A stretch of 64,000 bases of DNA from a phage. The translations under genes were made by a program, and so were the position numbers. The stretch lies in the sequence record OZ346189.1; one strand, given 5' to 3'. Numbering within the stretch: the stretch's first letter is position 1; each line of letters begins with the position of its first letter. Below the pieces are notes generated by a model, which was not told the origin of the DNA, did not search any database, and was given only the letters and a program-made list of their open reading frames with translations. Positions 56,857 to 62,659 of the stretch are shown piece after piece.

Positions 56857-57267
56857 ATGTCTAAAATGCTATATATCGTGCGTGGTCTACCAGGGTCTGG
56901 CAAATCAACACTGGCAAATGCGCTATCTTTAGAGGGTCTGTATCCACATTTTGAGAACGACATGTTCTGGTATGACGATGACGGCAATTACAACTGGGAT
57001 GCAAGTAAAGTAACACTCGCAGCAAAATGGTGCAAAGATAACGTAGAAGATATGATGCGTATGGGATACGACCGTATCGTGGTAAGTAATACGTTTACAA
57101 AAGAAAAACATGTGCAGGAATATGTTGACATGGCAATCACTCATGGGTATAGTTATACCGTGATCGTGGTTGAAAACCGCCACGGCAATAAAAGCATTCA
57201 TGATGTTCCAGACAAGGTTGTGGATCGTATGGAACGCCAGCTTAAAAACTGCATTAAACTTAAATGA
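56857..57267 (+). CDS. polynucleotide 5'-kinase (T4 Pnk kinase-domain-like)
   Basis: P-loop GLPGSGKST and C-terminal HDVPDKVVDRM resembling T4 Pnk; ACGGAGGG RBS. Confidence 0.65.
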   Translation: MSKMLYIVRGLPGSGKSTLANALSLEGLYPHFENDMFWYDDDGNYNWDASKVTLAAKWCKDNVEDMMRMGYDRIVVSNTFTKEKHVQEYVDMAITHGYSYTVIVVENRHGNKSIHDVPDKVVDRMERQLKNCIKLK

Positions 57268-57274
57268 GGAATGT

Positions 57275-57829
57275 ATGAAATACTTTGTAACAAGCGACAC
57301 ACACTTTCTCCACCAGCGGGTCATGGAGTTTGATTCATGTCAAAAACACAGATCTCAGTATGATCACAATCTTGACAGTATGAATGCGGGAATCATCACC
57401 AAGTGGAACTCTGTTGTGTCACCTGCAGACACTGTGTTCCACTTGGGAGATATTGCATGCACTAATGATAAGAATATCAACAAATTGCTCCCAGATATTC
57501 TAAATATGTTGAACGGACATATTATTCTTGTTCGTGGCAACCATGACACAAGGACGACTGTCAAAATTATGAAAGAGTTCGGTCATGAGGTTGTAGATTA
57601 TTACGAGCTTCGCCACAACAAGAATTTGATCTGTATGAGCCATTACCAGTTTGCAAAGTGGAACAGAAAGCCTCACGGATCAGTCCAACTGTTCGGTCAT
57701 GCTCACGGAACCACACAACAGTTGTTTGGCAGGCAGCTTGATGTCGGTTGGGATGTGTGGGGGAGACTCTTACCATTAGAAGAGGCATACCGTATTGCAA
57801 TGAGTTTTGATATTGACAGCAGGGAGTAA
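57275..57829 (+). CDS. calcineurin-like metallophosphoesterase
   Basis: motifs SDTHF, GDIA, GNHD. Confidence 0.65.
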   Translation: MKYFVTSDTHFLHQRVMEFDSCQKHRSQYDHNLDSMNAGIITKWNSVVSPADTVFHLGDIACTNDKNINKLLPDILNMLNGHIILVRGNHDTRTTVKIMKEFGHEVVDYYELRHNKNLICMSHYQFAKWNRKPHGSVQLFGHAHGTTQQLFGRQLDVGWDVWGRLLPLEEAYRIAMSFDIDSRE

Positions 57830-57876
57830 TCCCTGCTATTTTAAAGAAAATTGCCACACAAGGAGAATCAGGAGAT

Positions 57877-58227
57877 ATGAAAGATGGGGATAAGCTGCTA
57901 TATCTTAAAGTCCCCCTTGAAATACTATCTATGTCAAAAGTTTTGAATGACACAACTGGGGAGGTTGTTGTTCTTGACTTGTATGACAAGATCGTATACT
58001 GCTACCTGCACAACTGGTATAAGCTTGGAGGAAATTCACGCTTCACACCAAGCACAAGGAAAATTGCAGCAGATGTTGGGATAAAGAAAACAAAAGCAGC
58101 AGCGTGCGTTAAAACTTTAGAATGTGCAGGAGTGGTTGAAACATCCACACAAGGGAGAGGTAAAAGATGCACATTTTCCAAAGTTTTGCCACCAGAAGAA
58201 GTTATTCGGATGTCAACAACTGGTTAG
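57877..58227 (+). CDS. putative HTH DNA-binding protein
   Basis: helix-turn-helix-like segment PSTRKIAADVGIKKTKAAACVKTLECAGVV; GGAGAA RBS; directly upstream of palindromic repeats. Confidence 0.4.
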   Translation: MKDGDKLLYLKVPLEILSMSKVLNDTTGEVVVLDLYDKIVYCYLHNWYKLGGNSRFTPSTRKIAADVGIKKTKAAACVKTLECAGVVETSTQGRGKRCTFSKVLPPEEVIRMSTTG

Positions 58228-58297
58228 ACCAGTAAAAACTTAAATATCTGTACTATAAGGATTCGTATGTTTTATGTTCGCCATGGAACGGATACTA

Positions 58298-58366
58298 TTA
58301 ACTGTCCGTGATACGGACACATCTGCCCGTAATACGGACACTAACTGTCCGTGATACGGACACATA
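58298..58366. promoter_or_regulatory. two identical palindromic sites TAACTGTCCGTGATACGGACACAT plus a related half-site, followed by an AT-rich tract
   Basis: perfect inverted repeat TGTCCG-N5-CGGACA at 58303..58319 and 58349..58365; CCGTAATACGG between. Confidence 0.55.
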
Positions 58367-58866
58367 AAGAATATAACTAAAATAACTAAATAATAAAAAA
58401 TAAAAGATCTAGTACTTATGGTACTAAGTACATATACTTAACTTATGTAGAATATACTAGATCCTAAGTACCATGTTTTAAATTTATTACTTACTATGGG
58501 CAGTGTCGGCCCTTCATTGGCACTCGCCTACGAGGGGCGAGATGCCGGGCCTCCTTGGTGCACACAATAACAGAAGTTCATACATGCAGGTCTGTTAACA
58601 TGTGTGGGAGCGAAGCGATAGCGCAGGCCAAAGGCCGAGCACTGATGTGGACCACCGACGAAAGCTTGCCAGCGCCGTAAGGAGTCGGTTGAGAGTCTCC
58701 CGCACGAGCTTGGATGAAGTTTATGTGTGGAAACTGACAAGAAGGCCCCTAAATCGCTCCACAGCTATATAAACTATACCAGGTAATGCAATCGCACCAG
58801 TTTGATAGAAAAGCTCGTTACAAAGCGATACAGTGAGTTTTTCTATAACTTGAAGAGGAGGCAGCT

Positions 58867-59445
58867 ATGGGTTCACGCAAAGATGACCGTGAAAAGATTG
58901 CAAAACGTTATCAGAATGAAGAACAGATGGAGAAAACTTTCAAGTGGAAGCCAGGTTTCCAGCGTAATCATTCTAACGCTCGTGATCGTAAGCATCCGGA
59001 TAAGTGGTTAACACCGCCAAATGATGGCATGCAGGTTGGGGATGAGAAGGAGCTGTCACCTGGAAAAGATGGCAACTACATTCGCACTAAGGAAGCAGGT
59101 CCAAAGGATGACAGCTATCTTGTAGATAAGGTTCTTGACGGTGTTGATGTAGGTGTTGACACTGTACGAAACCTTTTTCTTGGTTGGTATCGCACAGGGT
59201 TTTTCGACATCAAGGCTATTCGTCGTGTTTGTGATATTAAAAAGTCTGCCTACGATGATGATTCCCTACATCGCACTCTGAGACAATACTCAGAGAGGTA
59301 CGGTCATCCAGTTATCACTCTTGACGATATTAACGAAGTTATGTATCATGTAGAGGTTGTTGCAGGTAGGTTCGGTGATGCATATCTCGGTATTCTTTCT
59401 GCAAAGGATGAGGTAATGTTAAATAAGATTTACTATGAACGCTGA
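58867..59445 (+). CDS. hypothetical protein
   Basis: ORF with GAGGAGG RBS. Confidence 0.5.
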   Translation: MGSRKDDREKIAKRYQNEEQMEKTFKWKPGFQRNHSNARDRKHPDKWLTPPNDGMQVGDEKELSPGKDGNYIRTKEAGPKDDSYLVDKVLDGVDVGVDTVRNLFLGWYRTGFFDIKAIRRVCDIKKSAYDDDSLHRTLRQYSERYGHPVITLDDINEVMYHVEVVAGRFGDAYLGILSAKDEVMLNKIYYER

Positions 59446-61210: not shown

Positions 61211-61308
61211 AGCTAGGTAAGCCCTTTGGCAAGGGCGAGGATTTTTAATCCTGAAAATAGACGAGGTAGTCGTTGAATACATAGGTGGTTCGATTCCATC
61301 ACCTAGCA
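61211..61308 (+). tRNA. atypical tRNA-like sequence (anticodon loop reads TTTTTAA, possibly Lys-TTT) with an approximately 30-nt insertion in the variable region
   Basis: acceptor GCTAGGT/ACCTAGC, D-arm GCCC/GGGC and T-arm GGTGG-TTCGATT-CCATC are recognisable; anticodon stem has only 4 bp; no encoded CCA. Confidence 0.3.
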
Positions 61309-61315
61309 CCTTTTT

Positions 61316-62375: not shown

Positions 62376-62659
62376 GAGTTGCTACACTGTTTATTGTGTG
62401 CTTGTTATTATGTGGGTGTGCAACCAGCGTTGAGAGAGAATACAAGATTGACCCTCCTGATGTAGGAAGGTTGATTGTTAAACCCCCGGAAGGTGCCATG
62501 AAACCACCTGCTAAAGCTATGCCTTTGAAGAAAGGTGCGCCAGATGCAGTGAATTCTGGCATTATGAGGGATAATAATCTGTCTTGTAGCAATGATAGAG
62601 CTAAATTGATCATTTTGCAAGACTATATTAGAACACTTTTTCCAAAGGAGAGAGGTTAA
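62372..62659 (+). CDS. o-spanin (Rz1-like outer-membrane lipoprotein)
   Basis: signal peptide with lipobox-like LLCGC; proline-rich mature region. Confidence 0.55.
   Translation: MRVATLFIVCLLLCGCATSVEREYKIDPPDVGRLIVKPPEGAMKPPAKAMPLKKGAPDAVNSGIMRDNNLSCSNDRAKLIILQDYIRTLFPKERG

Follow-up and report, generated by a model that had tools for sequence, protein, structure and literature searches.

A 640-bp intergenic region of this phage, in which repeated palindromes adjoin a very AT-rich tract shortly after a small winged-helix protein gene, raises the question of whether it is a replication origin, a transcriptional control region, a packaging site or an accessory element. The window (the whole stretch of DNA that was analysed, 64,000 nt of record OZ346189.1) belongs to a Vequintavirus, a virulent rV5-like myophage with E. 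coli as host, and the whole-genome comparisons were made with phage nomine, which is near-identical and has a complete genome of 137,991 bp. The locus is fairly probably the origin of vegetative phage replication, and the protein encoded there would be its recognition factor and a minimal initiator. It contains the following features:

57813-57842, plus strand: predicted sigma-70 promoter, TTGACA-18-TATTTT preceded by TG, upstream of the winged-helix gene (consensus scan).
57877-58227, plus strand: winged-helix protein gene of the rV5 gp075 family, a 116-aa ORF; candidate origin-binding initiator with a DNA-binding domain only.
58228-58298, no strand: spacer from the stop codon to the first iteron (alignment of 11 Vequintavirus loci).
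58299-58365, no strand: putative iteron array of three 17-bp palindromes, TGTCCG-N5-CGGACA (motif search and Tandem Repeats Finder).
58363-58410, no strand: AT-rich tract, candidate DNA-unwinding element (nearest-neighbour stability).
58397-58409, minus strand: GATCTTTTATTTT, a perfect match to the oriC 13-mer GATCTnTTnTTTT, including a Dam (GATC) site (motif scan).
58405-58474, no strand: block of inverted repeats that interleave, containing two GATC sites and three TAAGTAC motifs (11-genome alignment).
58503-58765, plus strand: GC-rich structured element (11-genome alignment and RNA folding).

The equivalent of 57813-57842 is annotated in the rV5 RefSeq record, also as a prediction ('Sigma70-type promoter; P76'), and the placement of this predicted promoter would imply early transcription by the host RNA polymerase. 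The iteron array starts 75 bp past the stop codon of the winged-helix gene and the next ORF is about 500 bp further downstream; this gene, at 58867, encodes 192 aa and is followed by small ORFs, tRNAs, and lysis and packaging genes. In the 11-locus alignment the 3' part of the spacer (58277-58298) is the most variable segment of the locus among relatives, and conservation is far stronger in the iterons, the AT tract and the palindromes than in the spacer beside them. The locus is 1.5 kb from a divergent transcription switch and from the minimum of the cumulative GC skew. The skew analysis in the rV5 genome paper gave transcription-linked changes only and no origin (PMC3606486). Since GC skew tracks the direction of transcription in rV5-like phages (PMC3606486), the genome-position argument for an origin is weak, and the skew minimum was given little weight as origin evidence. 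Nothing relevant on an origin, a transcriptome or satellites of rV5 or Vequintavirus was found in the literature.

The 57877-58227 product had been proposed as a small HTH protein in the original prediction, and this is backed by two Pfam matches just under their cut-offs (HTH_36, 24.5 bits against 25, and DUF6945, the best-matching model, 27.4 against 28) and by a structure model from a 22-sequence alignment, which shows a single winged-helix domain and a short C-terminal helix (pLDDT 78) and superseded an unusable single-sequence AlphaFold model (pLDDT 39). RepA_N and Phage_rep_O are absent among the eight Pfam families listed for the protein at E <= 1, from which most matches with E above about 0.1 had been dropped; this absence and the position of the matches below the cut-offs weaken the origin reading. 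The closest solved relative by sequence and by fold is 4RO3 (profile search, E=3.8e-12), the N-terminal domain of RepA from the Vibrio cholerae satellite PLE (PMC7145576), and the top fold matches include the solved RepA N-terminal domains 4PQL, 4PT7, 5KBJ and 4PTA, the N-terminal winged helix having the fold of the RepA_N and DnaD N-terminal domains. Gel shift and genetics have established PLE RepA as a protein that binds semi-palindromic iterons and drives replication at the PLE origin when ICP1 infects the cell; that the nearest characterised relative is an origin-binding initiator domain favours the origin reading (PMC7145576). The PHROG matches are confined to the N-terminal DNA-binding part of the 'replication initiation', 'O-like' and 'DnaD-like' families, and no experimental backing was found for the label 'replication initiation protein' that RefSeq and PHROGs use. 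The C-terminal domain that probably carries host- or replisome-specific functions in RepA_N-type initiators is absent from the 116-aa protein, and remote relatives of 182-217 aa bear acidic C-terminal extensions.

The protein family is tiny. A full-library HMMER search of 1.84 billion proteins gave eight representatives at E <= 1e-3, and several of these eight matches are spurious repeat proteins (P0007, P0010, P0012). A scan of IMG/VR viral contigs with the 116-aa protein gave nothing confirmed, and tblastn with the remote 182-aa homologue gave no close relative in cultured phages outside Vequintavirus and none in ICP1, so the mapped ICP1 origin is unusable as a homology anchor. Of the records in the database searched, 119 phage records contain the protein and 119 the intergenic DNA, and no others contain either; the two sets have the same organism and host make-up, which is consistent with the genus Vequintavirus, and this co-occurrence supports the origin reading.

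The three palindromes of the array are at 58303-58319, 58324-58340 and 58346-58362; their starts lie 21 bp and then 22 bp apart, which is two helical turns. Two identical 24-bp sites had been described here and are confirmed at 58299-58322 and 58342-58365, each with a perfect TGTCCG-N5-CGGACA, and the sequence between them, which had been taken for a half-site, is actually a full third copy with one mismatch (TGCCCGTAATACGGACA), giving a three-unit array. Tandem Repeats Finder reports a period of 21, 3.0 copies and a score of 102, the strongest of the three tandem repeats in the 64-kb window. With up to two mismatches, the window contains six matches against 1.23 expected (six were reached in 0 of 100 shuffles), and its matches with no or one mismatch are the three clustered iterons only. 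The array motif is found nowhere else in the nomine genome, where the array and the AT tract correspond to 133.65-133.8 kb, and the only half-site in 57000-59000 outside the array is a lone one at 57514, inside the upstream gene. Relatives have two, three, four or six iterons; the sole arm difference across the 11 aligned genomes is the fixed T-to-C change of the TGCCCG unit, and the 5-nt centre varies. Fixed arms with free centres are the pattern expected for contacts by a dimeric protein at these putative sites. Semi-palindromic direct repeats near the protein gene, as in RepA_N-type initiators, are thus present, and as phased palindromic repeats unique in 138 kb they favour the origin reading.

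The AT-rich tract that had been noted next to the sites reaches 93% A+T in the 40-mer from 58364 and 84% in the 60-mer, and ranks first in instability: its nearest-neighbour stability is the lowest at 40, 60 and 100 bp, both within the window and across the complete nomine genome. That the least stable duplex of the genome adjoins the iterons also favours the origin reading. The tract is nearly invariant in the 11 genomes, which differ by a single substitution and by slight variation in the length of one A-run. Its perfect match to GATCTnTTnTTTT, the E. coli oriC 13-mer consensus, is the sole one in the window, and matches with one mismatch are weakly enriched there (seven against 3.0 expected, seven being reached in 4 of 100 shuffles). 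No DnaA box (TTWTNCACA) is found in 58100-58900 and no IHF consensus at the locus. The further palindromes of the original prediction are present in the segment 58405-58474, as GATCTAGTA/TACTAGATC at 58406-58414 and 58455-58463, and as ATGGTACTAAG/CTAAGTACCAT at 58418-58428 and 58464-58474, and three of the eight window copies of TAAGTAC are within 60 bp in this segment. It is highly conserved: apart from a single 1-nt indel it shows a few substitutions, most of them from Aya, a divergent phage. It could be a second protein-binding site, a helicase-loading site or a phage promoter.

The layout is like that of PLE, where RepA binds direct repeats with inverted sub-repeats, the origin is in a non-coding region and the ICP1 phage replisome carries out replication after RepA has bound. 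For the rV5 DNA polymerase, the rV5 genome paper names ICP1 as one of the sources of the closest homologues (PMC3606486). PLE RepA has an added C-terminal domain, whereas the 116-aa protein corresponds to the N-terminal domain alone; PLE is a satellite, whereas the module studied here belongs to the phage itself, and the iteron sequences are unrelated. Lambda iterons are dyad-symmetric and about two helical turns apart, with a palindrome after the AT tract, and dyad-symmetric iterons flank an AT-rich tract here too. In both lambda ori and this locus several iterons adjoin the AT-rich tract, their copy number varies among relatives, and the specificity of the initiator changes together with the iterons, the two forming an exchangeable cassette. 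In lambda, which has four iterons (six in Stx phages), two iterons and the AT tract suffice for unwinding (PMC7466680). The lambda origin is inside the O gene, whereas this locus is downstream of the protein gene; the C-terminal domain of lambda O binds P and so recruits the host DnaB, whereas this phage has its own primase-helicase. The iteron plasmids, such as pSK41/pTZ2162 (RepA) and P1 oriR (RepA), also combine a winged-helix initiator with tandem iterons beside an unwinding element, and P1 oriR has GATC sites within its AT-rich part, as at this locus. Plasmid initiators, however, have two domains and in most cases rely on DnaA, DnaB and DnaC of the host, and this locus is without DnaA boxes or IHF consensus. 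The arrangement also differs from E. coli oriC, which has three 13-mers beside DnaA boxes, where only the single perfect 13-mer is found here.

Modules built alike, but differing in their protein and in their iterons, are found in other Vequintavirinae genera, in two metagenomic phages and in 13.5-kb plasmids, and this recurrence with co-varying protein and iterons in phage genera and plasmids favours the origin reading. Seunavirus, Mydovirus and Henunavirus show two types, one with a 105-aa protein and two copies of AGCCTAnnCTCAAATTGA, and the other with a 118-122-aa protein and two or three copies of CTAATTATTCCC-N-GGGAATA, and these two types cross the boundaries between the three genera. 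Five of the six Seunavirus, Mydovirus and Henunavirus loci resemble one another closely in the AT tract and GATC boxes, and Hena1 is more diverged; in other genera, GATC-T-rich boxes occupy the edge of the AT tract where the 13-mer match lies in this phage. The Seunavirus counterpart of the protein matches Phage_rep_O at E=0.042 only. The least stable 60-mer of the locus is in the same non-coding region at all ten other loci examined: in the plasmid and six Vequintavirinae loci it is either beside the iterons or at the GATC boxes that come directly after them, and it is among repeated short motifs in two metagenomic contigs. In a phi92-like phage (L017) it is also in this region, with an AT tract and GATCT at the equivalent divergence; the winged-helix gene and the iterons are absent, and this phage was not taken as support for the module.

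Under the origin reading, the 116-aa protein would be made early by the host RNA polymerase from the predicted promoter at 57813-57842. Its dimers would bind the three palindromic iterons, as suggested by the homology to the N-terminal domain of PLE RepA and by the dyad symmetry of the sites, and, being on one face of the helix (as the spacing of 21-22 bp suggests), would bend or wrap the DNA in a manner similar to the lambda O-some. The resulting strain would open the adjacent AT tract, whose instability is computed, and the T7-gp4-like primase-helicase and family-A DNA polymerase of the phage would assemble on the opened DNA. The GATC and TAAGTAC palindromes, and possibly the downstream GC-rich hairpins, may be loading or priming sites. 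No helicase loader is annotated near the locus and no P-like loader was identified. The lack of the helicase-recruiting C-terminal domain of known initiators weakens the origin reading; since a recruitment domain is lacking, the 116-aa protein is proposed to be a minimal factor that marks and melts the origin and not a helicase loader. Large virulent phages may also use recombination-dependent replication or multiple origins, and this was counted against the origin reading.

For Vequintavirus, phages that are widely isolated, featured in phage-therapy and cocktail studies and included in the BASEL reference collection, the locus provides a precise origin candidate, in which one protein goes with a 17-bp site and with an unwinding tract of 50 bp, and the same logic points to candidate origins in Seunavirus, Mydovirus and Henunavirus. 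If the origin reading is true, a RepA_N-like DNA-binding domain alone would be enough to license an origin for a phage-encoded replisome, the cassette-like swapping of replication specificity among these phages would be accounted for, and the locus would be an engineering handle for origin-based shuttle or marker-rescue vectors.

Local transcriptional control, which is unlikely, would have the protein act as a repressor or activator at the three sites on an intergenic promoter for the downstream block or for a non-coding RNA made from the GC-rich element; as a variant, the bound protein would be a roadblock to read-through from the early promoter. A stand-alone 116-aa winged helix also looks like a simple transcription factor, which weakens the origin reading: the fold is generic, MarR-, LexA- and CodY-type regulators score only slightly lower in the fold and sequence match lists, and most GenBank records label the protein 'putative transcriptional regulator'. 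The region divides genes with predicted early promoters from the block leading to late genes, and no intrinsic terminator is predicted after the winged-helix gene or inside 58228-58866, which makes control of read-through plausible. In other genera the iterons are between divergent promoters and the start of the protein gene, and in the Seunavirus type they are in the leader of the gene itself, a typical autoregulatory position; these placements fit autoregulation equally well, and iteron initiators often serve both roles. Here, however, the scan predicts no sigma-70-like promoter in 58228-58866 (weak evidence, as phage-specific promoters would escape it), and the sites are about 500 bp from the next ORF. 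No site overlaps the gene's own promoter or a nearby target promoter, as far as weak promoter prediction goes. Of the two readings that the original prediction left side by side, the autoregulated operator array is disfavoured by the absence of any site from the promoter of the protein gene, and the initiator-binding origin with an unwinding element is favoured by the homology, the iterons, the AT tract and the recurrence of the module. The uniqueness of the motif in the genome excludes a global regulator, and transcriptional control leaves unexplained both the position of the least stable duplex, which is beside the sites here and within the same non-coding region in each related module examined, and a nearest characterised homologue that is an origin-binding domain (PMC7145576).

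A packaging (pac) region, with the protein as a small-terminase-like factor, the repeats as its sites and the GC-rich element or the palindromes as the cleavage region, is very unlikely. Models for it would be lambda cosB with gpNu1 and P1 pac with its GATC repeats. The coordinates of the locus differ widely among records in which host and source are given as the same, such as nomine, nomo, nimi, isim and inoa, which is consistent with circular permutation and headful packaging, a process that needs a pac site; no small terminase is annotated, and the GC-rich element is shared with plasmids that have no annotated terminase, as would be expected of a packaging signal common to helper and satellite. 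These plasmids, however, have their own iterons; were the iterons terminase sites, a satellite lacking a terminase would need those of the helper. Assembly MG065672.1 begins at the iterons, but a break at a tandem repeat is a common assembly artefact. The protein has no terminase match in Pfam or PHROGs, its resemblance being to the N-terminal domains of initiators. The gene for the large terminase, which starts at 62659, is 4.4 kb from the locus and beyond the tRNAs and the spanin/lysis genes, and a maximally unstable AT tract is no known pac requirement. Least probable of all is a cis element of a selfish or accessory kind in place of the primary origin, for instance an array for incompatibility or handcuffing, a second origin used late, or what is left of a plasmid or satellite replicon that was captured and kept without being essential. 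For this reading speak the swapping of initiator-iteron cassettes between genera independently of phylogeny, the related modules in plasmids, the polymorphic iteron copy number and the tiny protein family, and against it the shared 119-record distribution of protein and intergenic DNA and the strong conservation of iterons, AT tract and palindromes relative to the spacer.

Returning to the origin reading, the GC-rich element downstream of the palindromes, beyond the interval of the original prediction, may be part of the origin, as a priming or loading site or as an RNA, or a packaging signal. Its hairpin at 58508-58551 is identical in the 11 genomes except for one loop base in Aya. Its RNA fold z-score is modest (-1.95 on the plus strand and -1.7 on the minus strand), and covariation within Vequintavirus is found in 1 of 80 pairs, the sequences being too similar. 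Rfam searches of the intergenic region at gathering and permissive thresholds gave tRNAs and chance-level matches only, and no family for this element. The 13.5-kb E. coli plasmids, carried for example by E. coli 190 and RM10740 and with no replicon type listed, show the same layout as the phage locus with an HTH_36 protein of 288-303 aa that matches initiator families over about 130 residues; they are without the phage's iterons and have their own, paired with their own HTH_36 protein. These plasmids may be satellites. A composite origin is a tentative and rather doubtful proposal: on the phage side, a 138-kb phage with a minimal initiator, in which a DNA-binding-domain-only protein would feed a T7-like primase-helicase, and on the other, undescribed satellite plasmids that would tap the replication or packaging of the helper through the shared GC-rich element. 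The plasmids that have this neighbouring element in common with the phage could point to a helper-satellite system that is new for E. coli.

The plasmids carry Vequintavirus-like tail genes and a capsid gene, with no annotated terminase or portal. The GC-rich element is common only to the phage and these plasmids, with compensatory changes in two helices. A comparison of the phage with a plasmid of the 13.5-kb family gave only six short DNA matches, and the two best of these fall in this element.

The region 57800-58900 shows 99.9% identity to Escherichia phage nomine (MN850649). Another 118 records match it at 90-99%, and all belong to the genus Vequintavirus, which comprises virulent rV5-like myophages with genomes of about 137 kb. 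The product of its ORF is named "putative transcriptional regulator" or "DNA-binding protein" in GenBank and "replication initiation protein" in RefSeq and some newer records; databases thus already carry an initiator label for it. Existing records flag the iteron repeats merely as an unexplained "repeat_region". The following features are considered:

57877-58227, plus strand: winged-helix gene, an ORF of 116 aa
58397-58409, minus strand: 13-mer GATCTTTTATTTT at the distal edge of the AT tract, matching GATCTnTTnTTTT
58503-58765: GC-rich, strongly structured element downstream of the palindromes, with a hairpin at 58508-58551 and a second conserved block at 58640-58706

The two identical 24-bp sites of the original prediction are present at 58299-58322 and 58342-58365, each with a perfect TGTCCG-N5-CGGACA, but the sequence between them (TGCCCGTAATACGGACA, 58324-58340), described as a half-site, is a complete third unit that departs from the pattern at one position. 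Consecutive units start 21 and 22 bp apart, or two turns of B-DNA. The array is the strongest of only three tandem repeats found by Tandem Repeats Finder in the 64-kb window, where the pattern is far above chance expectation, and TGTCCG-N5-CGGACA does not occur elsewhere in the complete nomine genome (137,991 bp). Eleven Vequintavirus loci were aligned, one of them encoding a protein of only 89.7% identity. The spacer just upstream of the array (58277-58298) is freely variable, and conservation of the iterons, AT tract and palindromes is much above that of this spacer. Phage navn has two iterons, this window and A147 three, rV5 and most others four, and O157 typing phage 14 six, a polymorphism paralleling the difference between lambda (four) and Stx phages (six) (PMC7466680). 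In all copies of the 11 genomes, the arms differ only by the fixed T-to-C of a TGCCCG unit, and the central five nucleotides vary (TGATA, TCACG, TAATA, CAATA, TGAGA and CCACG); constant arms with free centres are the pattern predicted if a symmetric dimer makes the contacts. The locus is also present in 18 Vequintavirus genomes deposited under the name "Campylobacter phage" (MG0656xx; C11, C12, A141 and others). These organism labels are probably wrong: the entry for A147, the one inspected, carries an UNVERIFIED flag and a Vequintavirus classification. The A141 record (MG065672.1) starts at the iteron array, probably through an assembly break at the repeat.

The predicted AT-rich tract is also found, with 93% A+T over 40 bp from 58364. 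By nearest-neighbour stacking energies it is the least stable duplex in the window, and in nomine it ranks first genome-wide at 40, 60 and 100 bp. The margin is clear: at 40 bp it has -37.4 kcal/mol and the next tract -40.3, and at 100 bp the values are -102.2 and -109.8. The 11 loci differ in it by a single substitution and by minor length variation of one A-run. No sequence in the window other than GATCTTTTATTTT perfectly matches GATCTnTTnTTTT, the E. coli oriC 13-mer consensus; neither the DnaA-box nor the IHF consensus is found at the locus. The further palindromes are confirmed as interleaved inverted repeats after the tract (58405-58474), containing two GATC sites and three of the eight TAAGTAC motifs of the window; among the 11 loci they differ by a 1-nt indel and a few substitutions, most of them in Aya, a divergent phage. 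The tracts that rank next in instability in the nomine genome include several in a gap of about 2.5 kb without annotated genes (nomine 90,501-93,006, about 15.1-17.7 kb of the window), located at a convergent switch and the cumulative GC-skew maximum, which is probably the "non-coding" box in the map of the rV5 paper (PMC3606486). About 500 bp past it, nomine 93480-93536 shows a 57-nt match (82%) to the 13.7-kb plasmid among those described below.

The 116-aa protein falls just short of the Pfam cut-offs, with 27.4 bits against 28 for DUF6945 and 24.5 against 25 for HTH_36. It matches PHROG family 12838, "replication initiation protein", and, more weakly, larger initiator families over their N-terminal DNA-binding part only. 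The family is very small: among cultured phages it contains 119 records, all with at least 89.7% identity; a search of 1.84 billion representative proteins gave only a handful of true relatives, and a profile built from these retrieved 24 proteins. The AlphaFold model from their alignment (pLDDT 78, pTM 0.76) shows a winged helix-turn-helix with an N-terminal beta-hairpin and a C-terminal helix. The solved structure closest in sequence and fold, 4RO3, is the N-terminal domain of RepA from the Vibrio cholerae satellite PLE; in cells infected by ICP1, replication from the PLE origin is driven by this RepA, whose binding sites are semi-palindromic iterons (Barth et al., PMC7145576). The protein is the counterpart of the DNA-binding domain of RepA alone, and a predicted initiator so pared down would be unusual. 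Five remote metagenomic homologues of 194-217 aa (P0009, P0011, P0014, P0018 and P0019) have long acidic C-terminal extensions ending in D/E-x-P-F (e.g., DEAPF, DAPF and GEPF), which are absent from the Vequintavirus protein. These ends resemble the C-terminal tip of SSB, DDDIPF, which recruits replication proteins.

Iterons, an unwinding element and a winged-helix initiator are the textbook architecture of an origin. The anatomy, conservation and co-variation, instability ranking and homology to an origin-binding domain are observed directly, and we infer binding of the iterons by the protein, melting of the DNA and loading of the replisome. We read the locus as the probable replication origin of the phage. 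The protein would be made early from a predicted sigma-70 promoter (57813-57842), and its dimers, on one helix face of the phased iterons, would distort the DNA. The uniquely unstable adjacent tract would then open, and the annotated primase-helicase and family-A polymerase of the phage could assemble there. Transcription reading through from this promoter may also contribute, since no terminator is predicted. No origin for the rV5-like group was found in the literature searched, and the rV5 paper sought one and explicitly failed to find it (PMC3606486). It is much less likely that the locus is instead an accessory or secondary origin. The GC-skew minimum is 1.5 kb away, a position that counts for little because skew follows transcription in these phages (PMC3606486).

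Other Vequintavirinae loci, fetched with neighbouring genes as anchors, show an analogous cassette in two versions, at the divergent transcription switch with the early promoters, by the PRPP-synthetase gene:

Type A (4MG, Mydo and EspYZU08): 105-aa winged-helix protein and two copies of AGCCTAnnCTCAAATTGA, 23-bp spacing
Type B (PVP-SE1, Klebsiella phage vB_Kpn_K54_rec4 and Hena1): 118-122-aa protein and two to three copies of CTAATTATTCCC-N4-5-GGGAATA, 24-bp spacing

In both types the iterons are followed by an AT tract with GATC boxes (AAAACATAAGATCTAAAACAAGATCTTTT) and then a strong sigma-70 promoter; Hena1 has a more diverged version of the tract and boxes, which are closely alike in the other five loci. 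The proteins share the initiator PHROG matches of the 116-aa protein, with "O-like" and "DnaD-like" families among them. The types cut across genus boundaries. Protein and iterons thus behave as a paired specificity cassette that can be exchanged on top of a shared unwinding region, much like lambdoid O/ori swaps, and this distribution implies modular exchange of replication specificity. In two metagenomic phage contigs, genes for remote homologues of 182-195 aa adjoin a 500-bp intergenic region at a divergent switch, with an AT tract and repeated AGGTACA motifs. Ten other loci were tested for their least stable 60-mer, and each has it in the same non-coding region. In the six Vequintavirinae loci and a plasmid of the family described below it adjoins the iterons or falls at the GATC boxes immediately after them; in the two metagenomic contigs it is surrounded by short repeated motifs; the tenth locus is that of a phi92-like phage with no such protein or iterons. 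In this phage, JohannJBalmer, the equivalent divergent region (positions 1-520 of the retrieved locus) shows a very AT-rich tract by GATCT and a GC-rich hairpin, with no winged-helix gene or obvious iterons, and may be a differently organised origin.

That the iterons are a local operator for a promoter or non-coding RNA is a less likely reading. It would fit the generic winged-helix fold and the position of the iterons of other genera, in the leader of the protein's own gene; here, however, there is no site at the promoter of the 116-aa protein, no promoter predicted near the iterons and no second target in the genome.

Beside the putative origin, the GC-rich element, set in an otherwise AT-rich intergenic region, is a notable neighbour shared by the phage and possible satellite plasmids. 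Among the 11 Vequintavirus genomes its first hairpin varies at a single loop position, in Aya only. Indels of 1 nt and a deletion of 18 nt are tolerated in the element, which is thus probably non-coding, although the rV5 record annotates a 56-aa ORF within it. It has no match in Rfam or in phages outside Vequintavirus. The sole similarity outside the genus is partial, at about 85% identity, with non-coding stretches of a family of non-mobilizable E. coli plasmids about 13.5 kb in size:

NZ_CP020521.1: 13,689 bp
NZ_CP043822.1: 39,610 bp, assembled as a trimer
NZ_CP035869.1, NZ_CP178698.1, CP148565.1 and CP134895.1: further members of the family

Two helices keep pairing by double changes from phage to plasmid (GGCA/TGCC to GTCA/TGAC, CTCGCC/GGCGAG to CTCTCC/GGAGAG, and CCGAC/GTCGG to CTGCC/GGCAG). 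In the plasmids, the element lies between arrays of palindromic iterons (TATCAAcATATCAAnnTGATATA three times in one; CGGTAAATATTACCG at 23-bp spacing in another) and an operon encoding a 288-303-aa HTH_36 protein. This protein matches replication-initiator PHROGs over about 130 residues and is thus a candidate plasmid Rep, the only one scanned of two annotated helix-turn-helix proteins; the plasmid looked up has no replicon type in the plasmid database. The same three-part layout in elements that must hold a plasmid origin independently supports the phage locus as an origin. The plasmids also encode a major capsid protein, a tape measure protein and two proteins with 50% and 45% identity to nomine_17 and nomine_9, respectively, of the Vequintavirus structural gene block, where the nomine_17 gene adjoins the tape-measure gene. 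No terminase, portal or sheath is annotated in them. They look like plasmid-borne phage satellites of rV5-like phages, a family with no description in the literature searched. Recognition of the iterons in packaging is very improbable, as plasmids without an annotated terminase bear their own iterons. Possible roles of the GC-rich element itself are as a site for priming or loading, as a non-coding RNA and as a packaging signal; the last is still worth considering because a helper and a terminase-less satellite would be expected to share one.

Further downstream, ARAGORN detects a 99-nt tRNA-like gene (61212-61310) with a four-base anticodon (atcc). Its score of 35.5 bits narrowly exceeds the tRNA threshold of Rfam; the nomine record lists it as "tRNA-OTHER", and it could be a frameshift-suppressor-like, intron-containing or degenerate tRNA.
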